Source of the DNA: a virus
Lineage: Duplodnaviria > Caudoviricetes
Length of the DNA stretch: 64,000 nt
IMG/VR virus record: IMGVR_UViG_3300012031_000010
Location: 6,511 to 70,510 of that record
Reading direction: 5' to 3' (one strand)
A model generated the notes under the pieces. The model did not search any database, was not told the DNA's origin, and saw only the letters and a program-made list of their open reading frames with translations. Each line of letters begins with the position of its first letter. Within the stretch, counting starts at the first letter, position 1. Of this stretch, positions 13,282-25,140 are shown one piece after another. The position numbers and the translations under genes were made by a program.

Positions 13282-13353
13282 GCGAGTAAAGCATAAAAGG
13301 TGATGTACCAGACTTCCAATCTGGATAAGAGGGTTCGACTCCCTCTACTCGCT
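13282..13353 (+). tRNA. tRNA-Gly(TCC)
   Basis: Cloverleaf GCGAGTA/TACTCGC, anticodon loop CT-TCC-AA, U73. Confidence 0.93.
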
Positions 13354-13434
13354 CTAAATATAATTAACAAAATTTTAACAAATTAAATTTTGATATTAAA
13401 AAAAGTTATTGTATTTTTGTTGTATATTAAACAT

Positions 13435-13510
13435 GGTGTTTATAGTGTTAGTGGTTAGCACGACAGAATGTGAATCTGTAAGGTTGAGTTCGAATCTCAA
13501 TAATCACCCA
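13435..13510 (+). tRNA. tRNA-His(GTG)
   Basis: G-1 extended acceptor, loop AT-GTG-AA, TTCGAAT T-loop. Confidence 0.9.
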
Positions 13511-13522
13511 AGAATTATTTTA

Positions 13523-13534
13523 GTTCATTGACAT
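13523..13534 (+). promoter_or_regulatory. boxA-like antitermination element GTTCATTGACAT; related copies GTTCATTGAAAT at 12595 and 24049
   Basis: Resembles the rRNA-operon boxA family (GYTCTTTRAMA-like); copies sit near the 5' part of long RNA transcription units. Confidence 0.55.
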
Positions 13535-13603
13535 TTTGGATAAGTAAAAATTAAAAACAAAAATCCTACTTTGGTAATATACCAAACACTAAAGTAGGTA
13601 CAT

Positions 13604-13691
13604 GGAGAAGTAAGCCAAGTCGGTCTACGGGTCGCTGTCTTGAAAACAGTTGGTGTGAAAGCACGTGAGGGTTCGAGTCCCTCCTTCTCCG
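13604..13691 (+). tRNA. tRNA-Ser(TGA)
   Basis: GGAGAAG/CTTCTCC, CT-TGA-AA, long variable arm, G73. Confidence 0.93.
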
Positions 13692-13708
13692 CTTTACTTA
13701 AAATATAA

Positions 13709-13781
13709 TCCTCCGTAGCTCAGAGGTCAGAGCAAAATCCTGTTAAGATTGAGGTCGGGATATCGTAATTCCCCGGAGGAG
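13709..13781 (+). tRNA. tRNA-Asn(GTT), atypical T-loop ATCGTAA
   Basis: TCCTCCG/CGGAGGA, CT-GTT-AA, G73. Confidence 0.88.
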
Positions 13782-13977
13782 CTACATTAATTTAAACCTT
13801 TTTATTTTTAGCTTATATTTATACATAAGGTTAATAAAGAGGTTCAAATTATGTTGATGATAACGGAGATTATCATTATCAATTAGAATTAGAAAACGGT
13901 AACCTTCACACGGTTAAAAAAGAATTAGGAGATTATCTATACAAGTTGGAAAGACAACTAATAGAAAAATAATATTT

Positions 13978-14049
13978 TACCTCATGGTGTAATTGGTAAC
14001 ACATTTGGTTTTGGTCCAAACGTTGTAGGTTCGAATCCTACCGTATCAG
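13978..14049 (+). pseudogene. tRNA-Gln(TTG) pseudogene with an unpaired acceptor stem
   Basis: D, anticodon and T arms are intact, but 5' TACCTCA cannot pair with 3' CGTATCA. Confidence 0.65.
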
Positions 14050-14114
14050 TAATTTGAAAACAAATGTTTAATCGGTTATTCACTATATTTTGTGTTAACA
14101 TTAGTTAATTAATT

Positions 14115-14357
14115 ATGAAACTAGCAATAGAAATTTGGGACAAACACATTGATGTATTTATGCACTTTGATTTGGTTTGTCATAACGGAAGTTCATTAGA
14201 AGATGAAACAAGAAGTAACGCACTATTTAACGCCCTTGTTACTTTAGATACTATGTATAAATGGAATGAATTTCAATTAGAAAAAATACAAGATGCAATT
14301 GAGTACTTAAAGGGTAGTAAGTATTATTCTGATGCAAATAAAAGTAGCACTTACTAA
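14115..14357 (+). CDS. Hypothetical protein
   Basis: 80 aa ORF after a promoter-like sequence. Confidence 0.6.
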   Translation: MKLAIEIWDKHIDVFMHFDLVCHNGSSLEDETRSNALFNALVTLDTMYKWNEFQLEKIQDAIEYLKGSKYYSDANKSSTY

Positions 14358-14643
14358 TTAATTAACAATGATTCGAAAACTTAAATAGTATATAGATGTG
14401 GTTTGTTTAGCGAAAGATTCCGTGGGTTCGACCCCACCTTTCCCTCAATTAAGATGTTAACTATGAACGTCCATTATATGTAACCAGCTGATAAACATAT
14501 AGTGGTGAGTTAAAATAAACGTTCTGTAACTCGGTGTACAGATAATGCCTGAATGACGTATATAGGTGGATATATGTTCTTTACCGTGGCGTATACCACG
14601 TTGTAAAATTGAACATACGTTTGACATTGGGAAAGACTAAAAT

Positions 14644-14716
14644 GGACTAGAGGTGTTGATGGTAACATACCGCACTGTCACTGCGAAGATTGAGGGTTCG
14701 ACTCCCTTGTGGTCCG
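14644..14716 (+). tRNA. tRNA-Asp(GTC)
   Basis: Loop CT-GTC-AC, G73, TTCGACT T-loop. Confidence 0.88.
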
Positions 14717-14929
14717 CGTTTAAACTTATTCTTGACCTACCAGCGTGTAATAGAGATAGGGGGAATCCGATAGTTTAATATCCATCCCTGAAATAGAACA
14801 CCTCACGGGGACACGGGAGGAGATGTTAATGATTGTGGTAAATTAACGAGGATTCTAAGTTATATTAATGGTCGGTAACAAAAGATGTTACCGTAATAGT
14901 GGCAGACACTCCATATCCATTAATCATTT

Positions 14930-15001
14930 TGTCTGTTAGTGTAGTGGTTAACACACAAGGTTTTGATCCTTGTATCGGGAGTTCGAATCTCTCACAGATA
15001 A
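14930..15001 (+). tRNA. tRNA-Gln(TTG)
   Basis: TGTCTGT/ACAGATA, TT-TTG-AT loop. Confidence 0.85.
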
Positions 15002-15019
15002 CTAAATTAGTCTTTAAAA

Positions 15020-15098
15020 CTAGATGCTTGGGCAGATGGCTGAACCCGCCTCACTTGGAATGAGGAGTATTTCGTGAGTTCGAATCTCACCATCTAGA
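15020..15098 (+). tRNA. tRNA-Pro(TGG)
   Basis: CTAGATG/CATCTAG, CT-TGG-AA loop. Confidence 0.85.
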
Positions 15099-15192
15099 CT
15101 TTTGGTTGTTAAACAACCCAAATTATTAGTTCATATGTAATTTTAACACTTTTTATTTGGTAGTATGGAATATTTTTTGTATATTGGTAGTT

Positions 15193-15836
15193 ATGGACGT
15201 AGTATGTAAAACGTGTAAAATAAAACACAATGGTAAATATGGATCTGGTATATATTGTTCAAAGGGATGTGCTAACACCAGATCACATTCAACCAAAACT
15301 AGAGAAAAAATATCAAAAGCTGTTAAATATCATATAAATAGTGGAGGTAATACCGGTGGGGACATGTAAAGGAAAAATTAACGATTGAAGAATATGAAGA
15401 TTGGTTAGAATCAAAACGTATTAAATCCGAAAGTATATTATTAAACACTCCATTTGATCAAATTAGTATATATTCTATGAAGAGAAGAATATTATTAGAG
15501 CAAAAAAATAAATGTAATAAATGTGGTGTAATTAAATGGAATGGCGTTGATTTGTCGTTAGAATTAGATCATAAAAATTGAATAAATACTGATAATAATC
15601 GTGATAATTTAGAATGTCTTTGTCCCAATTGCCATTCACTAACACCAACTTGGAGGGGACGAAATAAAAAGAACACAAGTATTAGGAACACGATTACAGA
15701 TGAAACTATATGTAGGACATTTCTACAAAGTGATAATATCAGACAAACTTTATTAAAACATAATATGTCCGCTAAAGGTAATAATTACAACAGGGTAAAA
15801 AGAGCTCTATCGGTAAATAATATAGAATATAAATAA
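15193..15836 (+). pseudogene. HNH homing endonuclease pseudogene (frameshift plus internal TGA)
   Basis: N-terminal CKTC...YCSKGC. Frameshift near the G-run at about 15358, then KCNKCG...LELDHKN*INTDNNRDNLECLCPNCHS, with a stop where Gly is expected. Confidence 0.85.
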
Positions 15837-15839
15837 TAT

Positions 15840-15911
15840 ACCTTCGTAGCTCAGAGGCAGAGCACTCCGCTTTTAACGGAGGAGTCGAGATTTCAAAATT
15901 CTCCGGGGGTA
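15840..15911 (+). tRNA. tRNA-Lys(TTT), T-loop TTCAAAA
   Basis: ACCTTCG/CGGGGGT, CT-TTT-AA. Confidence 0.88.
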
Positions 15912-15951
15912 CAAAGTTTGTGGTTGCAGACTCGGGTTCTTAATTACCCTT

Positions 15952-16022
15952 TGATATTTCGTCTAATTGGATAGGACATTGGCTGTCGGCCGAAGCAATA
16001 AGTTCGAATCTTATAATATTAA
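15952..16022 (+). tRNA. Degenerate tRNA, apparent anticodon GTC
   Basis: AT-rich acceptor TGATATT/AATATTA, D-arm, TTCGAAT T-arm, loop CT-GTC-GG. Confidence 0.45.
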
Positions 16023-16034
16023 AAAAAATTAAAT

Positions 16035-16106
16035 GGGTGTATAGTAGAACGGTTAGCACAATTGACTGATACTCAATTAATTCAGGTTCGAATCCTGATA
16101 CACCCA
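16035..16106 (+). tRNA. tRNA-Ile(GAT)
   Basis: GGGTGTA/TACACCC, CT-GAT-AC. Confidence 0.9.
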
Positions 16107-16155
16107 CTATACTAAGTTAATACTATAATCGTTATAGATGTATGAAGTATAAATT

Positions 16156-16244
16156 GCCGTTATTGGGTAGGTGGTGAACCCCGGAGACTGTAAATCTCTC
16201 GCAATATCAATAAGACTTTGTAGGTTCGATTCCTACTGGCGGCA
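16156..16244 (+). tRNA. tRNA-Tyr(GTA)
   Basis: GCCGTTA/TGGCGGC, CT-GTA-AA, long variable region. Confidence 0.88.
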
Positions 16245-16260
16245 CAAAAATAATTAAAAC

Positions 16261-16334
16261 GCCCCTATGATGGAATTGGTAGACGTGACTGGCTTAGACC
16301 CAGTATTTTGTAGGTTCGAATCCTACTAGGGGTA
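16261..16334 (+). tRNA. tRNA-Leu(TAG) with a short variable loop
   Basis: GCCCCTA/TAGGGGT, Leu-type D-loop GGAATTGGTAGAC, CT-TAG-AC; no long arm. Confidence 0.85.
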
Positions 16335-16434
16335 CAAATATTTGTATTAGAAGTAATATCTTAATTGATATTAAATTTATTTTTTATTATGGGGGTGAAG
16401 CTCTAATAGGACGAGCATTTCCTTTTTACTAATT

Positions 16435-16507
16435 GGCCTGATAGTTTAGCTGACTAAAATACTTGTCTTGCACACAAGAGACCCGGGTTTGAGGCCCGGT
16501 CGGACCA
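16435..16507 (+). tRNA. tRNA with a TGC (Ala) anticodon but no G3:U70 pair
   Basis: GGCCTGA/TCGGACC gives C3:A70; loop CT-TGC-AC; T-loop TTTGAGG. Confidence 0.65.
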
Positions 16508-16714
16508 CTACAATGTTTGAATCCAATTTACATTACTTCCATTTTTTTAATTAATTTATTGAAGATTTAGCTGTTAAGAATATGATATATAACATATAAA
16601 ATATAGTCACTTCCACTATTATACCCTAAAGGGTATATGTTTTCATCTAGGATTTTATTTCATCAAAGTAATTACCTAAAGATGATACTCCGATATACAG
16701 AATCGGATTTTTAT

Positions 16715-16794
16715 ACCTACGTGGCGAAACTGGTAAACGCATCATCCTTAAACGGTGACACTTCGGTTTGTGGGTTCGACTCCCATCGTGGGTA
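16715..16794 (+). tRNA. tRNA-Leu(TAA)
   Basis: ACCTACG/CGTGGGT, CT-TAA-AC, variable arm. Confidence 0.88.
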
Positions 16795-16801
16795 CAAATA
16801 T

Positions 16802-16875
16802 TCTCCTTACGCATAAGAGGTGGTGCACCAGATTTGTAACCTGGAACAGAGTCGGTTCGATCCCGACAAGGAGAT
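16802..16875 (+). tRNA. tRNA-Thr(TGT)
   Basis: TCTCCTT/AAGGAGA, TT-TGT-AA. Confidence 0.85.
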
Positions 16876-16894
16876 CAAATTTCAATTATCAATT

Positions 16895-16968
16895 GCTCTT
16901 TGTAGTTCAGTGGGTGGAACATTTCATTGGTAGTGAAAAGGTCGTGGGTTCGAATCCCACCAAGAGCT
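16895..16968 (+). tRNA. tRNA-Thr(GGT)
   Basis: GCTCTTT...AAGAGC, TT-GGT-AG. Confidence 0.85.
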
Positions 16969-17284
16969 CTAAAATATTATTAACAAATATTTAACACTTT
17001 ATTATTTGTATTATAAAAATAAATTACTATATTTGTATGTAATAATTAAAGAGATAGAAATTATGAGAGATAACGTATATTTTAGATGGTTTTTAAAAAG
17101 TCTAAGACCAGATCAATTAAAGGATTATAATTCATATTCCATAAACGGTCAACAAACTTGGTATATATCATTCTTAGAATCAAACTTTTCAAAAAATTAA
17201 GTTTGTACGTAAAACGATAGTTAAACTTTAACATATTAAATTAGGATATTAGAAATATTATCCGTATATTTACCAAGTACAAAT

Positions 17285-17357
17285 CGTCCTCTAGCTTAAT
17301 TGGTAGAGCACCATACTCATAATATGGGGGATAAGGGTTCAACTCCCTTGGGGACAA
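17285..17357 (+). tRNA. tRNA-Met/Ile2(CAT)
   Basis: CT-CAT-AA loop, C1:A72 mismatch, no three G-C anticodon pairs. Confidence 0.8.
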
Positions 17358-17440
17358 CTTTTTTAACATTTATTTAACATATTAAAATTTGATTTGTAAA
17401 ATTAAAATTGTATATTTACAATGTTATAAAAAAATACAAT

Positions 17441-17512
17441 GTTGCTATAGTGAAGTGGTTATCACGTCTCACTTTCTATGAGGAGTCTGGGGTTCGAATC
17501 CCCATAGCAATA
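17441..17512 (+). tRNA. tRNA-Glu(TTC)
   Basis: GTTGCTA/TAGCAAT, CT-TTC-TA. Confidence 0.88.
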
Positions 17513-17531
17513 CAATAATATATAATTTATA

Positions 17532-17729
17532 ATGGTCAATTGTGAAAATTGTAATGAGATAATTGCTATAAATTATGCATCTGGTAGATTTTGCTCTAAG
17601 AGGTGTACAAAATCATTTTCTACGAAATCAGGTAGACAGTCAATTAACACTAAGATTAGTGAATCAATTAAATCTAAATTAATGGATGGTGATCAAATTG
17701 GATTCTGGAAAGGCGGTTTCGAACTATAG
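17532..17729 (+). pseudogene. Truncated N-terminal fragment of an HNH endonuclease like the one at 15193
   Basis: CENC...ASGRFCSKRC motif parallels CKTC...GSGIYCSKGC; no HNH domain follows. Confidence 0.55.
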
Positions 17730-17784
17730 TAAAAGTAAATCTAAAGATTAATTACCTTTAGTATGAGTTGTTCGAACAACTCGA

Positions 17785-17882
17785 TTATATATGGTGTACG
17801 GTGCACTCCACAAAGTTAGTATGTTGATGAAATCAACTGAAACCGGCGAGGTAGATTTAGGTTCAATTCCTTTTTATATAAC
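17785..17882 (+). ncRNA. tRNA-like RNA with an expanded anticodon region
   Basis: TTATATA/TATATAA acceptor, GTGT/GCAC D-arm, AGG-TTCAATT-CCT T-arm, internal GTTGAT-GAA-ATCAAC hairpin. Confidence 0.4.
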
Positions 17883-17983
17883 TAAGAATGAGAGTGAACG
17901 GTTTAGGATGGACGGCAATCCATTGGAACTTGAAACTAATTCCTTTATCAATTTAGTTTTTGCCGAAATTAATTATTGATATT

Positions 17984-18055
17984 GCTCTTGTGGACAAACT
18001 GGAAAGTCGCTGGTTGCTGAGACCGGAGATATGGGTTCGACTCCCACCAAGGGGA
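17984..18055 (+). tRNA. tRNA-Gln(CTG)-like (G33, 1:72 mismatch)
   Basis: CTGGT/ACCGG stem with loop TG-CTG-AG; TTCGACT T-loop. Confidence 0.6.
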
Positions 18056-18068
18056 CTAAATAATAAAT

Positions 18069-18160
18069 CGCGAGTTGGAGAAGTTTGGTATCTCACCTGT
18101 CTCATAAGCACGGAGTCCGCTAATTACGGTATAACGGGGGTTCGAATCCCTCACTCGCTA
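18069..18160 (+). tRNA. Initiator-like tRNA(CAT) with a long variable region
   Basis: CGCGAGT/ACTCGCT (C1:U72), TGGAGAAG D-arm start, CT-CAT-AA, about 22 nt variable region. Confidence 0.75.
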
Positions 18161-18180
18161 CAATAGTTTTTAAAATATAT

Positions 18181-18253
18181 CGCGGGGTAGTTCAGTTGGT
18201 AGAACGTCGGGATTATAACCCGAAGGTCGCTGGTTCGATTCCAGTCCCCGATA
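18181..18253 (+). tRNA. tRNA with a TAT anticodon on an fMet-like body
   Basis: 5' CGCGGGG, anticodon stem TCGGG/CCCGA, loop AT-TAT-AA. Confidence 0.8.
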
Positions 18254-18293
18254 CAAGTTCCATTACGAATAATGGAAATTAATTTTAAAAAAC

Positions 18294-18366
18294 GCGGGAG
18301 TAGCTCAGTTGGTAGAGCGCTAGATTGAAGCTCTAGAGGTCGAGGGTTCGAACCCCTCCTGCCGCA
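18294..18366 (+). tRNA. tRNA-Phe(GAA)
   Basis: TAGCTCAGTTGGTAGAGC D-arm, TT-GAA-GC. Confidence 0.9.
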
Positions 18367-18381
18367 CAAAAATTTATAAAA

Positions 18382-19203
18382 ATGGGAAGAACATTAGTGA
18401 TTGGTGATGTACATGGGTCCGCAAAAGCATTAGAGCAAGTATTGGATAGATGTAACTTCGATCCATTACGTGATAAATTAATTTCTATTGGAGATATTGC
18501 GGATGGATGGAGTGAAGTATCCGAGTGTGTTGATATACTTTTGGATATCAAATCTAAATCAGGTGAAGAAAATGAACCAGTATTCATTCGAGGCAATCAT
18601 GATGTTTGGATGTATGATTGGATGAAGTTCGGAACAACCCCATCTTTGTGGACTACCCAAGGTGGGCAAGCTACTTTGGATTCCTATATAAGAACCGATA
18701 AGGTGGGAGATAGTGATCACAAATCTTTTTGGTCCGAACAGGAAGATTGGTATATAGATGAAAAAAATAATCTGTTTATACACGGGGGATGGGATTATTC
18801 TTTAATGAAACTTGGTTGGGAAGATTTATCACCAAGAGAGTTATTTGAAAAGCAAGCAAATGATTGGTACGGTTCAACTGTCGATATTGGAAGTATCGCA
18901 CGTTCATGTCATTGGGATAGGGATATTTGGCACGGGTCTCAAAGTGGGGCTGTAAAGAATAGGAAAACAGGTGAACCATCTGGGTTTAACCCACTGAAAC
19001 AATTCAATCAGGTGTATATAGGTCACACCGAAATACGTACTAAAGATGGAAGTTTACCACAACCAATAAATAATATAAATCTATGGAATGTGGATACTGG
19101 TGCAGGATGGGGAGGTTGTTTGACTATAATGGATATCGATACTCACGAATTTTGGCAATCGGAACTAAGTAGGAATTTATACCCGAATGAAAAGGGAAGA
19201 TAA
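18382..19203 (+). CDS. Calcineurin-like metallophosphoesterase (Ser/Thr phosphatase family)
   Basis: GDVHG, GDIAD, RGNHD, HGG, GHT and DTGAGWGG motifs. Confidence 0.92.
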   Translation: MGRTLVIGDVHGSAKALEQVLDRCNFDPLRDKLISIGDIADGWSEVSECVDILLDIKSKSGEENEPVFIRGNHDVWMYDWMKFGTTPSLWTTQGGQATLDSYIRTDKVGDSDHKSFWSEQEDWYIDEKNNLFIHGGWDYSLMKLGWEDLSPRELFEKQANDWYGSTVDIGSIARSCHWDRDIWHGSQSGAVKNRKTGEPSGFNPLKQFNQVYIGHTEIRTKDGSLPQPINNINLWNVDTGAGWGGCLTIMDIDTHEFWQSELSRNLYPNEKGR

Positions 19204-19312
19204 AATAGGAGAGGGTATCGTGATGACTCCTTTAACAATTACCGTGATTTTAATAGTTTTAATGTGTAGTATGATTACACGTGTGGGGTATCTATCAAAA
19301 AAACCCCGTTTT

Positions 19313-19386
19313 ACAGGTGTAACTCAATTTGGTAGAGTGTTTCTTTTACATGGAAAAAGTTGGCGGTTCGAGTCCGTCCACCTGTA
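19313..19386 (+). tRNA. tRNA-Val(TAC)
   Basis: ACAGGTG/CACCTGT, TT-TAC-AT. Confidence 0.92.
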
Positions 19387-19399
19387 CTAATTTAAAGAT

Positions 19400-19485
19400 G
19401 GAGAGTAATCCTAAACGGTGATAGGGTTTACCTGCTAAGTAAAACGTCCGGGAAACTGGATTCGGTTCGATCCCGATGCTCTCTT
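19400..19485 (+). tRNA. tRNA-Ser(GCT)
   Basis: GGAGAGT/GCTCTCT, CT-GCT-AA, long variable arm. Confidence 0.88.
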
Positions 19486-19490
19486 CAAAA

Positions 19491-19707
19491 TTAAAAGGTG
19501 ACTATCGCACTACGGTGAGGAAGTTCGGAACATCTTTGCTTAACGTAGGAGATATTACCAAAATGATTAAGTTCAATAAAGGAATCGATTATACTACGGA
19601 AGATGAAACTTAAACAGTTCTAGGAGGTGAGCAATTCTATGATGAACGGGTTGGAGGAAAATAGACAAATGATAGTGTAGATACAGAAATCCGGCTATAA
19701 CTCTTAA
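19491..19707 (+). ncRNA. rnpB: Compact RNase P RNA (about 215 nt)
   Basis: CR-I GAGGAAGTTCGGA pairs with CR-V TCCGGCT (P4 with bulged U). P2 ACTATC/GATAGT, GAGCAA, TAGACAAATGAT (CR-IV) and ACAGAAATCCGGCT are all present. Confidence 0.88.
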
Positions 19708-19715
19708 TTATATTA

Positions 19716-19844
19716 TAATCCCCGTATAAGTGTTCGGGAATGTGTGTACACATAAGTATCAATGCATTGCAATGTGGTGGTACTACGTTATTGTTGGGAA
19801 TGTAAGTTCGATTCTTACACCATAAACCGAACATGAGGGGATTA
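19716..19844 (+). ncRNA. Unassigned structured RNA with a tRNA-like T-arm module
   Basis: TAATCCCC/GGGGATTA and TGTTCGG/CCGAACA closing stems, inner TGGTG/CACCA stem, GTAAG-TTCGATT-CTTAC T-arm. Confidence 0.55.
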
Positions 19845-19874
19845 TTTTCATGAAATAGTAAAAATTAAAAACAC

Positions 19875-19947
19875 GGCGTGGTAGTTCAGTTGGTAGAACG
19901 TGAGAATCATAACCTCGAAGTCAGGAGTTCGAATCTCCTCTACGCTA
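19875..19947 (+). tRNA. tRNA-Met(CAT), elongator type
   Basis: GGCGTGG/CTACGCT, AT-CAT-AA. Confidence 0.88.
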
Positions 19948-20005
19948 CAATATATAATGTAATATCCTTATAAAGTTAATTATAATCAAATAACGTAATA
20001 ATATC

Positions 20006-20230
20006 ATGTGTGGAAAAAATCTTGATAATAAAATAAACGATTCTGATGAGAATCCCTATGATATGTTTCCTGATAACTTGACTGATAATGAGATTAGATT
20101 TATTTCAGAAAGAATTAAGATAGAATATAATAAACAAAGTTGGCGGAGAAAATTAAGAAATATTTATCTTGGATATAAATTTAGATTTGAAGATTGGGTA
20201 TATGAAATTATTAAAAAAATTGAACGATAA
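20006..20230 (+). CDS. Hypothetical protein
   Basis: First of three adjacent small ORFs. Confidence 0.55.
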   Translation: MCGKNLDNKINDSDENPYDMFPDNLTDNEIRFISERIKIEYNKQSWRRKLRNIYLGYKFRFEDWVYEIIKKIER

Positions 20231-20233
20231 GTT

Positions 20234-20485
20234 ATGATACCAAAAAATGAGATGATCGATGGTAGATGGTACAATGGATTTTGTAGAAATACACGAGTTG
20301 CACTATGGGATAAAAAAGAAGATAGATTTATCCATCTTAGATATAAGTTTGGGTATCGAATGGATACGATAGAACATTTTGAAGATGTACAGTCCGATAG
20401 GTCTGATGGGTTTGTGCCGTTGACACTAATAGAACAAATCGATCACGAAATAATCTGGAAAGTAAAGGATGAAATTGGATATTAA
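20234..20485 (+). CDS. Hypothetical protein
   Basis: 83 aa ORF, closely packed with its neighbours. Confidence 0.7.
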   Translation: MIPKNEMIDGRWYNGFCRNTRVALWDKKEDRFIHLRYKFGYRMDTIEHFEDVQSDRSDGFVPLTLIEQIDHEIIWKVKDEIGY

Positions 20486-20717
20486 ATTAAATCTAGGCAT
20501 TCTTTACAATCGCGGTAATGTAGTTAACCACCGTTCTTTACTAAAAGTTTTAAGTAATCCATTATTCAGATATTTCGGATACTGTATCGGAAGTAAGTTC
20601 GATGATAATAAATTCGTAAAATATGTTATATTTAAACAAGAACGAGTTAGACCAATACGATATTCGATGAAATGTAACGAGTTTGATGTAATTGAAAAAA
20701 TAAGAAGAATAATATGA
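20469..20717 (+). CDS. Hypothetical protein
   Basis: 82 aa ORF overlapping the previous gene by 17 nt. Confidence 0.6.
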   Translation: MKLDIKLNLGILYNRGNVVNHRSLLKVLSNPLFRYFGYCIGSKFDDNKFVKYVIFKQERVRPIRYSMKCNEFDVIEKIRRII

Positions 20718-20842
20718 ATGATTTAACAAAATAAATTAGTTTTTATGATTTATTATACTTATATTAGTAGAGTAGAAATGTGGTTAAGAAAGGATGCCAA
20801 CGGTTTCGTTGAAGTACAAATTCGCTAAAACTACTCCTACAT

Positions 20843-20922
20843 AGCCCAATGGTGGAATTGGAAGACACGACAGTTTTAAGCGCTGTTGCCTAGGCGTGTG
20901 GGTTCGAGTCCCACTTGGGTTA
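20843..20922 (+). tRNA. tRNA-Leu(TAA), second copy
   Basis: AGCCCAA/TTGGGTT, TT-TAA-GC, variable arm. Confidence 0.9.
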
Positions 20923-21023
20923 CGAATAAGGTAGAGCTAGAGATTCCTAAATTACGTATAAAATATCCTAGCGGGCGTTGTTTTTTTAGTTTTTCAAACA
21001 CCATAATGAAATAAAACTAATAT

Positions 21024-21095
21024 ACTTCCTTGATGTAACTGGTAACATGATGGTCTCCAAAACCATTTATGAGGGTTCGAATCCCTTGGGGAGTG
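21024..21095 (+). tRNA. tRNA-Trp(CCA)
   Basis: ACTTCCT/GGGGAGT, CT-CCA-AA, G73. Confidence 0.9.
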
Positions 21096-21105
21096 CAATT
21101 TTAAT

Positions 21106-21188
21106 AGTACGGTATCTTATAATGGCAAAACGGTAGGTCACCCATTAAAACGGTCTAGAGTTATAGGTTCGAATCCTATCCGTACTAC
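21106..21188 (+). ncRNA. tRNA-like RNA with a 12-nt anticodon loop
   Basis: AGTACGG/CCGTACT acceptor, ATAGG-TTCGAAT-CCTAT T-arm, TAGGTC/GGTCTA arm around ACCCATTAAAAC. Confidence 0.55.
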
Positions 21189-21199
21189 AAATATTAATT

Positions 21200-21400
21200 G
21201 TTGATGATTATTAACAATTTACTGGACCAGGGTTCGTTACCCTGCAACTCCACATAGACTAAGTAAAACCTCTTATGTGTACACATAACGTAACTTAGTA
21301 TAGATTTTAAATATGGGGTTGGATTGTTTTGACAGTAGAAGATGTGATAATTGAGATTGATATTACTGTAAAAGGAAACTTTGCAATTGCAGCCTAAAAA
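21200..21400 (+). ncRNA. ssrA: Circularly permuted two-piece tmRNA
   Basis: Acceptor piece (T-arm CAGGG-TTCGTTA-CCCTG, 3' CAACTCC-A) lies upstream of the coding piece starting GGGGTTG at 21315, giving G3:U70. GATTGTTTTGAC D-analogue, P2 pairing between the pieces, tag frame ending VKGNFAIAA-stop at 21397. Confidence 0.88.
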
Positions 21401-21441
21401 CTGTTTGATTCCTAATTTCTAGGAATTTTTGAATCACGTAC

Positions 21442-21470
21442 TTACCCAATACGAAAATTGGGTAATTTTT
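21442..21470 (+). terminator. Intrinsic terminator after the tmRNA coding piece
   Basis: TTACCCAAT/ATTGGGTAA stem plus T-tract. Confidence 0.75.
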
Positions 21471-21542
21471 GGCCTCGTAGTTCAACGGATAGAACAGTTG
21501 ATTACGGCTCAACAGATGGGGGTTCGAATCCCTCCGAGGTCA
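21471..21542 (+). tRNA. tRNA-Arg(ACG)
   Basis: GGCCTCG/CGAGGTC, TT-ACG-GC. Confidence 0.92.
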
Positions 21543-22155
21543 CTTTTTAATACTACGAATCTAAAGAATATTATTACTATATTAGTATCCTAATAATGAT
21601 TGGAGAATAAAATAAATTATATCATGAAAAACAAAATAAACAATATAATAACAGAGGTTGAAAAATCTACATCATTGGGATATGCTGCAAAAGTATTCAA
21701 TTTCAGTATTTCGGATGATGAAATAGAATCATTAAAATACAGGGGATATAAATCCACTACAATAGATGATAAAGATTACAAGGAAACCGTTGTATATTCA
21801 AGGGAAATGTAAGTAGATAATGGCTATAAAATAGGTGGTAGACTCGATAGCCAAACTGAATAGTAATACATTAAATCGATAAGATATGATGAATACACAA
21901 ATGGGAACTCGGACAAGATACGCTGAACGTAGGAGAAATAGTTTACATAGAACAACCGCAAGGGTTGTTTGGAAATCACGGAGTAGACATACTGCGTAAA
22001 TTAAAATAGGAAGAACTGGAGAATCCTTAATTTCCCAGTAGGTGGTTTTCTTAATTTACTATCTTTATAACATTAAAATTATCGCGTTTGGGATGAAACA
22101 ACGTACCTATTTAGTAGGAGCCGCCATCAGGCTGTCATAAAATAAATCCCACTTT

Positions 22156-22227
22156 GCCTGTATAGTTTAATTGGAAAAATACCGCTCTTCTAAAGCAGTG
22201 TTGGGGGTTCGACTCCCTCTACGGGTA
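22156..22227 (+). tRNA. tRNA-Arg(TCT)
   Basis: GCCTGTA/TACGGGT, CT-TCT-AA. Confidence 0.88.
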
Positions 22228-22447
22228 CAAAAATTATTAATTATGAAAATCCAATTTGATTTGCATTAGGTTTAATTAAACCAAAATGCAAAATGAGTAT
22301 AAATTTTAATCGTGGAAGATTTAATAAATCCCACAATAGTAAAGAGTACAAACGATTATTAATGAGTGAATTATATCCAATTTATTGGGATGAAGGAATT
22401 TACTATAGAAAAGGTATATTATCATTCAAATATAGAATGTATAGGTC

Positions 22448-23029
22448 ATGGAAACACAACAGAAAAAATCAGTACGGGGAAAACGGGTAATTGTTAATCC
22501 AAACGTAGATAATTCACATCTATACAAACGATGCCTTGTTATCGATTCAGCTTGGATACCACGATCAATTATTACAACCGAACGTGCTTTCGTTATTTCT
22601 TATAAGGGAAATGCAGAAGTTATAGAAGAACATCCTGAAAGTTTTGGATTGGTTAATCCTGAACTAGAAATTGGTAAACCATCTATTATCCGTGTATTCA
22701 CTTATGTAAAAAAGAATTTTCAAAAAGTGCCGTTATCAAGGGAGAATGTATTCCGTAGGGATAATTACGAATGTGTGTACTGTCCTCCTGGAGTTGTACA
22801 TCACAAATCCGATTTGACGTTGGATCACGTACACCCACAATCAAAGGGCGGTAAGAATAGTTGGAACAACTTGGTAACCGCGTGTAAACCGTGTAACCAT
22901 ACAAAGGCAGATTTGTTAATCGAGGAATTGGGATTGGACCATCCAAACCCGAAGCGGCCTCACTTCCTAATGTTACTTAAAACAATTGGACATATTCCAT
23001 CAGAATGGAAGCCGTATCTTTTCCTGTAA
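22448..23029 (+). CDS. HNH endonuclease (McrA-like family)
   Basis: LSRENVFRRDNYECVYC, LTLDHVHPQSKGG and WNNLVTACKPCNHTK motifs. Confidence 0.93.
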   Translation: METQQKKSVRGKRVIVNPNVDNSHLYKRCLVIDSAWIPRSIITTERAFVISYKGNAEVIEEHPESFGLVNPELEIGKPSIIRVFTYVKKNFQKVPLSRENVFRRDNYECVYCPPGVVHHKSDLTLDHVHPQSKGGKNSWNNLVTACKPCNHTKADLLIEELGLDHPNPKRPHFLMLLKTIGHIPSEWKPYLFL

Positions 23030-23054
23030 TGATACTTATATAAAACGATGTATT

Positions 23055-23369
23055 ATGAAATTAATGAATATGATTAAAGAGATATTAGCCGAACTATCTA
23101 GTTCGGCTAAATATTATAGGGATAACCCGGATAAACGTAAGGCAAAACAAAAGTATGATGCTGAATTAAATAAACGACCGGAACAGGTAAAATCTAGGGT
23201 TGAAACTAATAAGGCAAGACGGGATGCAAAAAAGGCAGGAAAAGATATAAAAGGAAAGGATGCATCCCATACGAAGAACGGAATACGGTTCAAAGAATCT
23301 AGTAAGAATAGAGGAAGTAAATCGGATTCACCTGGAGATAAACGTGCAAGAGGTGGTAAGAAAAAATAA
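23055..23369 (+). CDS. Basic hypothetical protein, possibly a degenerate HNH
   Basis: Lys/Arg-rich; GKDASHTKNG...SKNRG resembles degenerate HNH motifs. Confidence 0.65.
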   Translation: MKLMNMIKEILAELSSSAKYYRDNPDKRKAKQKYDAELNKRPEQVKSRVETNKARRDAKKAGKDIKGKDASHTKNGIRFKESSKNRGSKSDSPGDKRARGGKKK

Positions 23370-23798
23370 TTTAACAAAACTTTAAGATTTGAAGTTAGGA
23401 AAAATAAATTAATTATCGTATATTTACTACGTAGTAATTATTAAAGATAAAAATTATGTATGTTGATGTCAAATCCGATTTTGAAAAATTATTCAAAAAT
23501 TAAATTACAACCTTTAGTTTAAGTTTATTCAAAAGTGAGAAAACACTAGGTAAAAAATCAAGGTTGTATTTTAAACTATTATTATATTTGTTAATCATAT
23601 AATTTATATACTTATATCTAGGATTTATTAATAATAAATACAAGGTATCAATATCATTAAAATATTCTAAATAATTTATCAAATAATAAAAACAATTCTG
23701 TTAGAAAGTATTGAGAAAGGATATTAAGTTTGAATCAACTTACACGGGGTAGTTATCCAACCGATAACCCTTGTATTATCCAATCGTTTTTATTTTAT

Positions 23799-23886
23799 GT
23801 TCTAGTGCTAGAGTGGTCGATTAGGATAGTCTGCAAAACTATTGAAGGAAACTTCCCCGTTGGTTCAAATCCAACCTAGAACTCCA
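23799..23886 (+). tRNA. tRNA-Cys(GCA) with a long variable arm and encoded CCA
   Basis: GTTCTAG/CTAGAAC, U73, CT-GCA-AA, variable hairpin GAAG-GAAA-CTTC. Confidence 0.88.
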
Positions 23887-24099
23887 AGAGTTTTAACAAA
23901 ACTTTAACATATTAAATTAGGAAATACGATTTAATTATCGTATCTTTACAGAGTAGAAAAATACTAATAAATAATTTGGTATTTTTTTTAAAAAAATATT
24001 ACGTTTGGGAAATTTGTATATATATATATACCCAATATAACAAACGACGTTCATTGAAATTACAGATTGAAAAAATAAATTAACAAAATAATTTATATA

Positions 24100-25140
24100 T
24101 GTTTTATAGAAACGATTCGAGCTTGGTCTTGGATTAAAGTATATAACTACTAGGTACGGAATTGGAATTCGGATTGAAGTATATAGGTTGTTATCAGAGG
24201 ATACCAACTGATTAATTTTATAAGGGTGGTTTGACATCCTACTATAGGACTACGGTTTTATAACAAAGATATGGTACTGTAAAGTATCGAAAGGAGGGGT
24301 TCACATCCCTCCGCCAAGTTTCATTGGTTTATTTAAACAAGTATCATCTTAGCTGTGCCAAACAGGTTATCACCGTCAACGTGGTAGATATGGAGAAAGT
24401 TAGGTAATAACTCCCCGTGGAACGGGATATAGTAAAGACTGGCCAACGGTGGGTTTTTCTAAATAAGGGTAGTTCCTTTTGTTATTACATACTAAACTAA
24501 CAAAACCAAAAGTAGATAAGATATAGATTATGAGTTCAAGTACCACCAGTATTAGAGCAAGTAATCAATACAAAAGGTAAAAGGAATCATAATGAATCCA
24601 AAGTAATCTTGAAGTATCGCACAGTAGGTTTGGTAGACCGAAACGTATTTTTCGTCCCGCATTTTGTACTACAAAATAGTATGAAACGGTGTTAGGGCAC
24701 GAGGAGGTGAATAAATAACTTAGGAAAGTTAGCTCAGTTGGTAGAGCATTTGTATGTTAAACAAAAAGTCGTAGGTTCAACTCCTGCACATTCCGTCATT
24801 AATAATGATAACAGCAAAGACCCTAACAACTTTGGAAAAACAAATCACCTAATCCTACAATCGTTTACGGTAATGTAGGTTCACGGACACTCGCAAGGTA
24901 GATGTGAATTGATTGAATTCCACACCTAATTCCTTAGCAGGAATGAATGGTTCGCAAGATCAAGGGTAGGATGAAAGTCGAGTAGTTTCAAAGTGATAAG
25001 AGAAAAGCCACTCTTTAAAAAAGGCGGTGTTGTTTTCATACCTCGAAAGATTGAGGTGGATAAGTTTTTAATCGATGGGTTTGCACCCAAAGAGTACGGA
25101 AACGAAAGTGGGAACATTAAATGTATAATCTCAGCATTTT
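24100..25140 (+). ncRNA. Large structured ncRNA, probably GOLLD-like, with an embedded tRNA
   Basis: About 1 kb without a convincing ORF and dense in hairpins (GGAGGG/CCCTCC, CCCGT/ACGGG, ATTTTGTA/TACAAAAT, CCTACA/TGTAGG, TTCCT/AGGAA, ACCTC/GAGGT, GGGT/ACCC). GGTAGGATGA and TAATCTCAG resemble GOLLD 3'-domain motifs as recalled. Boundaries approximate. Confidence 0.5.
24723..24795 (+). tRNA. tRNA-Asn(GTT), second copy, inside the large ncRNA
   Basis: GGAAAGT/ACATTCC, AT-GTT-AA, G73. Confidence 0.82.

Follow-up and report, generated by a model that had tools for sequence, protein, structure and literature searches.

RNase P RNA belongs to the small number of universal ribozymes, and natural forms without a specificity domain (S-domain) are, to our knowledge, known only from archaeal type T and from some organelles. 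Here, we consider a stretch of 64,000 nucleotides from a phage of the Caudoviricetes (the window), which is part of a 70.5-kb IMG/VR viral contig from lake-water metagenomes, estimated to be 37% complete. The public sequencing runs listed as containing this DNA are DNA runs from lake-water metagenomes, two of which may be from the source sample, and there is no RNA run among them. At 19489-19709 on the plus strand of the window lies a miniature homologue of RNase P RNA, which measures 221 nt from the 5' strand to the 3' strand of helix P1 in a comparative helix map made on an alignment of its family (A2). The element is almost certainly genuine: a miniature RNase P RNA that is encoded by the phage, kept under selection and descended from bacterial type A. 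Comparison shows that selection maintains its sequence and fold throughout a large phage family, and that both are homologous to RNase P RNA. It is classed as a predicted new structural variant of RNase P RNA, outside every existing Rfam class, because the family fails the Rfam thresholds and lacks the conserved regions CR-II and CR-III.

With bacterial type A, as in the M1 RNA of E. coli (gene rnpB; RF00010), the phage RNA shares the helix order P1-P2-P3-P4-P5-P6 and P15-P16-P17, a P2 of 7 base pairs (bp) stacked on P3, a P4 whose bulged U is flanked by G-C, the P6 pseudoknot, the L15 internal loop with GGU, and CR-I, CR-IV and CR-V; a P18-like hairpin is present in about half of the phage relatives. 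It differs from type A in length, 221 nt against about 350-400, in that a stub of about 60 nt replaces P7-P14 with CR-II/III, in the lack of P18 in the window copy, in being encoded inside a tRNA array, and in falling under the RF00010 gathering score. The phage P4 is, furthermore, one A-U pair shorter, GAGGAAGUUC / GGCUA, than what we take to be the E. coli helix, GAGGAAAGUCC / GGCUUA. The 7-bp P2, the 3-nt linker between P5 and P15, P6, the GGU of L15 and the P18-like hairpin of relatives point to a probable origin in type A.

Bacterial type B (RF00011) has no P6, and has P5.1, P10.1 and P15.1; it is rejected for the phage RNA, in which P6 is present and for which RF00011 gives no match at E ≤ 10. 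Type T of the Thermoproteaceae (RF02357) occurs naturally as an RNase P RNA about 200 nt long, which keeps the catalytic domain (C-domain), has lost most of the S-domain and was missed by the Rfam models that existed at the time; it has a 3-bp P2, a P15 that is one pair shorter and a 2-nt linker between P5 and P15 (PMC3579882). The phage RNA is similar in its small size, in the retained C-domain, in the loss of most of the S-domain and in its escape from Rfam models. Type T is, in contrast, cellular and archaeal and works with archaeal proteins, and it is rejected as a class for the phage RNA, with its 7-bp P2, its 3-nt AAA linker and the absence of an RF02357 match at E ≤ 10. Since type T differs in just the features that are type-A-like in the phage RNA, and since RF02357 misses the window, the shrinkage of the two RNAs is taken to be convergent.

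In experiments on E. coli RNA (Eco CP RPR) and P. furiosus RNA, the type-A C-domain alone cleaves substrates with or without protein, and such C-domain-only RNAs depend on P6-type pairing and dispense with P18 (PMC5839562). The elements kept and dropped in these engineered RNAs are those that the phage family keeps and sheds, which makes a catalytic function of the phage RNA plausible; the engineered RNAs are, however, laboratory constructs of reduced efficiency, whereas the phage RNA is natural and keeps a conserved S-domain stub. A virus-encoded RNA that resembles bacterial and archaeal RNase P RNA is also known from camelpox virus, where it showed no catalytic activity in vitro and a decoy role was discussed (PMC3001073). 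This RNA, from a poxvirus of eukaryotes, is inactive on pre-tRNA in vitro and is unlinked to viral tRNA genes, whereas the phage RNA belongs to a large, covarying family that resides within tRNA arrays.

The family was collected with a search pattern of three conserved blocks at compact spacing, in which the distal pairs of P4 are left as N. An exact-motif pattern with the window's own P4 sequence gave no match; the relaxed pattern found 12 and then 46 IMG/VR contigs (at least 46) of up to 501 kb, and it also matched 8 contigs from genome assemblies and at least 120 stretches of metagenome sequence. The window contains the three-block pattern a single time, and 100 dinucleotide shuffles do not contain it at all. 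A covariance model (R1), made from 19 members with 188 positions and 35 base pairs and without P1, P4 and P6, scores every viral locus at 82-190 bits and, among the 80 metagenome loci listed, about 70 at 79-185 bits, with a clear gap to a class at 20-26 bits. Its single match in the whole window, at 19500-19697, has 133 bits (E = 1.7e-31), which is mid-range for the family. The lengths from P1 to P1 are about 205-250 nt, and two of the relatives are complete phage genomes with terminal repeats, of 305 and 488 kb.

Alignment A2 was made with MAFFT from 32 distinct sequences, and the full RNase P-type structure was counted on it, pseudoknots included. Paired cells amount to 88.7%, compared with 62.6% in shuffles (reached in 0 of 500) and 33-46% when the partners are slid, and the covariation score is 0.672 against 0.193 for the control. 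When the columns are scanned in pairs with no structure assumed, P2, P3, P4, P5, P15 and P16/17 are recovered. P5 is paired to 100%, with compensatory changes at all four of its pairs, P2 to 98.7%, with such changes at six of seven pairs, and P4 to 99.6%, with compensatory changes at the four distal pairs. The distal P4 occurs as GGG/CCC, AUG/CAU, GAU/AUC, GCC/GGC and AAG/CUU, and this covariation is no artefact of the search, because those pairs were N in the pattern. Compensatory changes are also found in P3 (96% paired, of variable length and capped by GNRA or UNCG), P15 (99%), P16 (91%), P17 (85%) and P1 (74%), where all 11 columns vary on both sides; P2, P3, P4, P5 and P15 each show more than one type of compensatory pair. 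The P6 pseudoknot between J5/7 and the loop of P17 has at least five contiguous pairs in 32 of 32 sequences, in about 14 sequence versions, and it covaries: strands from the same RNA form on average 6.1 bp and cross-paired strands 4.3. Invariant, without being fixed by the pattern, are the G and U of GAGGAAGUUC, the GC that joins P2 to P3, the AA of J5/15 and a G of L15. In 18 of the 32 relatives there is a hairpin, or two, before CR-IV, and in 14 of these 18 the last one is GNRA-capped in our reading of A2; this capped hairpin looks like a P18. The stub GGAG / CGUU-N3-AC that surrounds a variable hairpin in the S-domain region is under selection.

That the family descends from RNase P RNA is supported by matches in both directions. 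In the direction from Rfam to phage, RNaseP_arch (RF00373) aligns end-to-end with one relative (L040) at 40.7 bits (E = 1.5e-10), and RF00010 aligns end-to-end with another (L051) at 40 bits (E = 3.3e-11). In the opposite direction, R1 was applied to Bacteriovoracaceae genomes, and in three of these its sole match at E ≤ 1 (37-41 bits, E from 2e-7 to 4e-6) lies on the canonical rnpB gene, which RF00010 scores at 223-234 bits with matching coordinates; two further Bacteriovoracaceae genomes, with longer rnpB, have no R1 match at E ≤ 1. A two-way homology between the phage family and RNase P RNA is thus supported by way of its members, and it is through the family that the link to type A runs, because RF00010 gives no match on the window copy itself at E ≤ 10. 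For the window copy, a permissive scan of 19380-19880 (501 nt) aligns RF00373 end-to-end to 19490-19709 with 16.6 bits (E = 0.01), anchored by GAGGAA..UC, AGACAAAUG and ACAGAA...GGCUA. With a gathering score of 84, so low a score is weak evidence taken alone. The earlier note, which saw only the letters, had proposed a compact phage RNase P RNA, to be checked with Infernal and RNase P models. From the window alone that observation is visible but unproven, and the check gives the sub-threshold RF00373 match and nothing at gathering; it is from the covariation in the family, the Rfam matches to its members and the R1 matches to canonical rnpB that the proposal draws its support.

The helix map of the window copy, with all features on the plus strand, can be followed from its outer end. 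In P1, the 5' strand AAUUAAAAG (19489-19497) pairs with the 3' strand CUCUUAAUU (19701-19709) in 9 bp that include one A.C mismatch. The 5' strand of P2, ACUAUCG (19501-19507), pairs with 19670-19676 in 7 bp, the last of which is an invariant G.U, and directly on P2 is stacked the P3 hairpin CAC-UACG-GUG (19508-19517), 3 bp with the UNCG-type tetraloop C(UACG)G. CR-I, GAGGAAGUUCGGAA (19517-19530), contains the 5' strand of P4 (19522-19529, with U19524 bulged), and CR-V, ACAGAAAUCCGGCUAU (19683-19698), contains its 3' strand (19690-19696), so that P4 is a long-range helix from CR-I to CR-V. P5 pairs CAUC (19531-19534) with GAUG (19602-19605), and between its strands lie the 5' strand of P6 and the S-domain stub. 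The P6 pseudoknot joins UUGCU (19536-19540) to AGCAA (19630-19634) in the loop of P17; the stub (19541-19601, about 60 nt) includes two helices, a P7-like one (19544-19548 / 19594-19598) and an inner one (19551-19553 / 19584-19586), together with a conserved asymmetric loop, which reads GGAG / CGUU-N3-AC in relatives, and the variable hairpin. After P5 comes the 3-nt J5/15 linker AAA (19606-19608), of which two A's are invariant in the family (A2 columns A121 and A122), and then the P15-P16-P17 module (19609-19656). In this module, P15 (19609-19611 / 19654-19656) is shifted in register by one base in the window, P16 pairs 19617-19620 with 19644-19647 and P17 pairs 19622-19625 with 19635-19638, while J15/16, AAACA, forms an internal loop facing GGGUUG. 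The latter is the 3' side of L15 (19648-19653), with the GGU motif, and its G and GUU positions are invariant or at least 90% conserved. The CR-IV-like block in J15/2, AUAGACAAAUG (19661-19671), runs into the 3' strand of P2; it has the form AGAnnAAU in the family and is aligned to uuAGucGAAUG of the Rfam consensus. The core blocks thus stand in canonical order, GAGGAAGUUCGG at 19517, AGACAAAUG at 19663 and ACAGAAAUCCGGCUA at 19683, each aligned to the corresponding Rfam block and conserved in the family.

The location given in the earlier note, 19491-19707, is accordingly borne out, with comparative ends two bases further out on each side, and the helices and blocks that it had recognised, P2, P3, P4 with bulged U, CR-IV and CR-V, are all present in the map. 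It had called the specificity domain reduced, as the 60-nt stub confirms, and P18 absent, which holds for the window copy, where no P18 hairpin but GGAAAAU alone lies between P15 and CR-IV. P1, P5, the P6 pseudoknot and the P15-P17 module with its GGGUUG loop in L15 had gone unmentioned and are present. CR-II/CR-III, the P10-P12 module, is not recognisable in the window copy, and the alignments skip the S-domain positions of the Rfam models.

Several observations weigh against reading the element as an RNase P RNA at work in tRNA maturation. At Rfam gathering thresholds RNase P is found nowhere in the window; RF00010, RF00011 and RF02357 give no match on the window's record at E ≤ 10; the window copy scores far under every Rfam gathering score, and the best relatives reach about 40 bits. 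The helices of this AT-rich copy are weak, with 3 bp in P3, 3 bp in P15 with a G.U and the shifted register, an A.A mismatch at the distal end of P4 and the A.C mismatch in P1. Single-sequence folding of 19491-19707 brings no gain over shuffles (z = -0.45), z is -1.80 when the entire intergenic stretch is folded, and the comparative nested fold of the copy has -16.5 kcal/mol compared with -39.0 for the unconstrained minimum free energy. Substrate affinity may be poor, because the T-loop-reading part of the S-domain (CR-II/III) is unrecognisable. The GGU of L15 would pair with the tRNA 3' CCA, and CCA is encoded by none of the 28 window tRNAs (array 13282-24795), though the GGU is conserved; across the family, phages encode CCA on essentially all of their tRNAs or on almost none, and the GGU is kept in both groups. 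A C directly follows the discriminator in 25 of the 28 window tRNAs. As to a protein partner, no RnpA (PF00825) is found in the window's contig (37% complete) or in five large relatives, three of them at least 95% complete, and blastp clustering of 2,544 open reading frames within 5 kb of 122 loci yields no conserved neighbouring protein or candidate cofactor. The host, finally, presumably has its own RNase P, which leaves no evident need for a phage copy.

The low Rfam score, the weak helices and the unremarkable folding energy of the window copy are what one would expect of a host rnpB fragment that was captured and now decays without function. Against such decay, the reduced architecture is preserved, with abundant compensatory changes, in a set of well over 100 different sequences that come from many environments; the members include complete phage genomes of 305-488 kb, and the 133 bits of the window copy put it in the middle of the family. 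A decaying fragment is for these reasons very improbable, and the covariation in effect refutes this reading.

Some relatives depart from the common arrangement. Two of them, L014:3780-4020 on the minus strand and L080:671-915 on the plus strand, appear circularly permuted: upstream of CR-I there is just the 3' half of P3, and the 5' strand of P2, the invariant GC and the 5' half of P3 come downstream of CR-V, after a linker of 5-6 nt that replaces P1. In both, P2 pairs at seven of seven positions (AAUCAAC/GUUGAUU and AACCGAC/GUCGGUU), and the split P3 is compensatory between the two. Circular permutants of RNase P RNA are not known to us from nature. In a 488-kb phage, a second copy of 164 nt (L025:1894-2057, minus strand) lies about 330 nt downstream of the full one, and there are equivalent second copies at L077:11058-11221 and L103:303-466. 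The second copy is without CR-I, that is, without the 5' strand of P4, and has an altered CR-V, AACAGGAUCCCGCUUA; it can therefore not form P4, and may be a non-catalytic paralogue or a pseudogene. A longer member, at L046:765-994 on the minus strand, has its true CR-I, GAGAGGAAGCUCGGGAC, about 30 nt upstream of the pattern match, and has about 47 additional nt in its S-domain region, which overlaps a tRNA-like match below threshold (25.7 bits, 876-947).

The absence of an RnpA gene is equally compatible with the use of host RnpA, with action free of protein and with an unrecognised phage protein; the protein partner, if there is one, is most simply host RnpA. The clusters of neighbouring proteins that come nearest to conservation are found in just 11-13 of the 122 loci, and one of these contains the window's 193-aa open reading frame, an HNH endonuclease. 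The same absence would also suit an RNA that mimics RNase P RNA as a decoy, so as to sequester host RnpA or compete for the processing of host pre-tRNA, to the advantage of the phage or for the shut-down of the host. The S-domain is largely gone, the camelpox RNA is inactive in vitro and discussed in these terms (PMC3001073), and the second copies without CR-I in L025, L077 and L103 show that non-catalytic derivatives arise. A decoy does not, however, need a full core, and in more than 100 diverged sequences CR-I, CR-IV and CR-V, the bulged U, the geometry of P4, P6 and the GGU of L15 are kept, with compensatory changes; the embedding in co-oriented tRNA arrays also fits a processing enzyme better. 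We consider a decoy unlikely, and the element is probably the catalytic subunit of an enzyme for 5' maturation of phage pre-tRNA.

This preferred reading, a processing enzyme, takes into account where the RNA is encoded. The contig has about 30 tRNA genes, a permuted tmRNA and a GOLLD RNA, all on the plus strand. tRNA-Ser(GCU) at 19400-19486 (plus strand, ARAGORN; Rfam tRNA at 19401-19484) ends 2-4 nt before the 5' strand of P1, and the next tRNA downstream of the element is tRNA-Met(CAU) at 19875-19948 (plus strand). In the family loci, 661 tRNAs are on the same strand as the element and 2 on the opposite one, and a tRNA often abuts the element directly, at one end or at both. No terminator-like site is found on the plus strand between the flanking tRNAs and the element in the window. 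The earlier note had placed the element next to the tRNA array and a tmRNA; the permuted tmRNA is indeed there, at 21206-21397, and the element itself is inside the array and not merely beside it.

Because of the co-orientation, the flush tRNAs and the lack of a terminator-like site in the window, the RNase P RNA would be part of the polycistronic transcript of the phage tRNA array and would be released from it by the nucleases that excise the neighbouring tRNAs; cleavage by RNase P at a downstream tRNA or tRNA-like element may aid the release. The RNA would then fold around the P2/P3 stack and the P4 and P6 pseudoknots and, probably in cooperation with host RnpA, which is the likely partner since no phage RnpA gene is detectable, would cleave the 5' leaders of the approximately 30 phage pre-tRNAs and probably also of the permuted tmRNA. 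A more far-reaching proposal, which we hold to have even chances, is that large phages carry a minimal RNase P ribozyme without an S-domain, competent alone or with host RnpA, that makes their tRNA maturation independent of host RNase P RNA, and that the family includes the first natural circular permutants of RNase P RNA (L014 and L080), with new ends in the loop of P3.

The two-piece permuted tmRNA (21206-21397, plus strand) scores 53.7 bits, above gathering, and lies 1.5 kb downstream of the element; another permuted tmRNA, at L046:251-552 on the minus strand, scores 93.4 bits and lies downstream of the family member there, at a distance of about 200 nt. Directly 3' of the element, the segment 19715-19844 (plus strand) is well folded (z = -2.73); its long closing stem surrounds hairpins and a unit that resembles a T arm, GUAAG-UUCGAUU-CUUAC, after which comes ACCA. 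The segment could serve as a tRNA-like signal for processing, by which the 3' end of the RNase P RNA would be set. These neighbours, together with the missing T-loop-reading module, are in accordance with an RNase P-type ribozyme of altered specificity that acts mainly on tmRNA, on tRNA-like elements such as 19715-19844 or on host RNAs. The association of the family is, however, with ordinary tRNA arrays in general, tmRNA is detected in few loci only, and C-domain-only RNAs still cleave substrates like pre-tRNA (PMC5839562). An altered specificity is accordingly a doubtful alternative, and maturation of phage pre-tRNA remains the preferred function.

Among the other features of the window is the GOLLD RNA (RF02032) at 24649-25137 (plus strand, 162.5 bits, above gathering), in which a complete tRNA-Asn (24723-24795) is embedded. 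The tRNA array is interrupted by genes for a calcineurin-like metallophosphoesterase and an HNH endonuclease (18382-19203 and 22448-23029, plus strand), the former of which sits just upstream of tRNA-Val. Phage genes in the window encode Baseplate_J, a CHAP lysin, PhoH and the HNH endonuclease, the last inside the tRNA array. Synteny by way of the upstream metallophosphatase leads to one distant locus (L002), without the element and without an Rfam match, and blastn and megablast searches of the INPHARED phage collection find no relative of the element or of its surroundings.

Genuine compact RNase P RNAs of DPANN archaea (L049, L052 and L054-L056) are likewise matched by the motif pattern; they resemble the phage RNAs in length (208-249 nt), and their CR-I, CR-IV and CR-V are spaced in the same way. 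They differ from the phage RNAs in scoring 53-113 bits with RF00373 and only 21-26 with R1, and in being cellular genes outside tRNA arrays. Two of them, at 82.1 and 53 bits, fall under the RF00373 gathering score of 84 and would therefore escape automatic annotation. Family members are further found on contigs assigned to bacteria, namely L050 / L087, on a 546-kb contig binned as a metagenome-assembled genome (MAG) of Bacteriovoracaceae, and L051, on a 3-kb contig with 13 tRNAs binned as Roizmanbacteria. Neither of these two MAGs, which are incomplete, yields a canonical rnpB; the contigs may be prophages, or phage contigs that were put in the wrong bin. No family in Rfam 15 captures the phage RNA, and no description of a phage RNase P RNA was found in the literature covered, which includes a survey paper on huge phages and leaves out most subscription journals; as this coverage is partial, an earlier description may exist.

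As a natural experiment, the family tells which parts of the bacterial ribozyme can be lost: P6 is retained in every case, P18 may be present or absent, and of the S-domain a conserved stub is left. The apparently permuted members would show how freely the RNase P fold tolerates rearrangement. Genes of this kind in viral genomes are missed with the current Rfam thresholds. If the more far-reaching proposal is true, the RNA would be a natural minimal RNase P of bacterial type, a small system for study of the catalytic core and a previously unrecognised layer of phage control over translation. With such a family, maturation of tRNA 5' ends would join the translation functions supplied by large phages themselves. 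Possible reasons for a phage copy are the load from its own tRNA array, the shut-off of host expression, and defence and counter-defence around tRNA processing.

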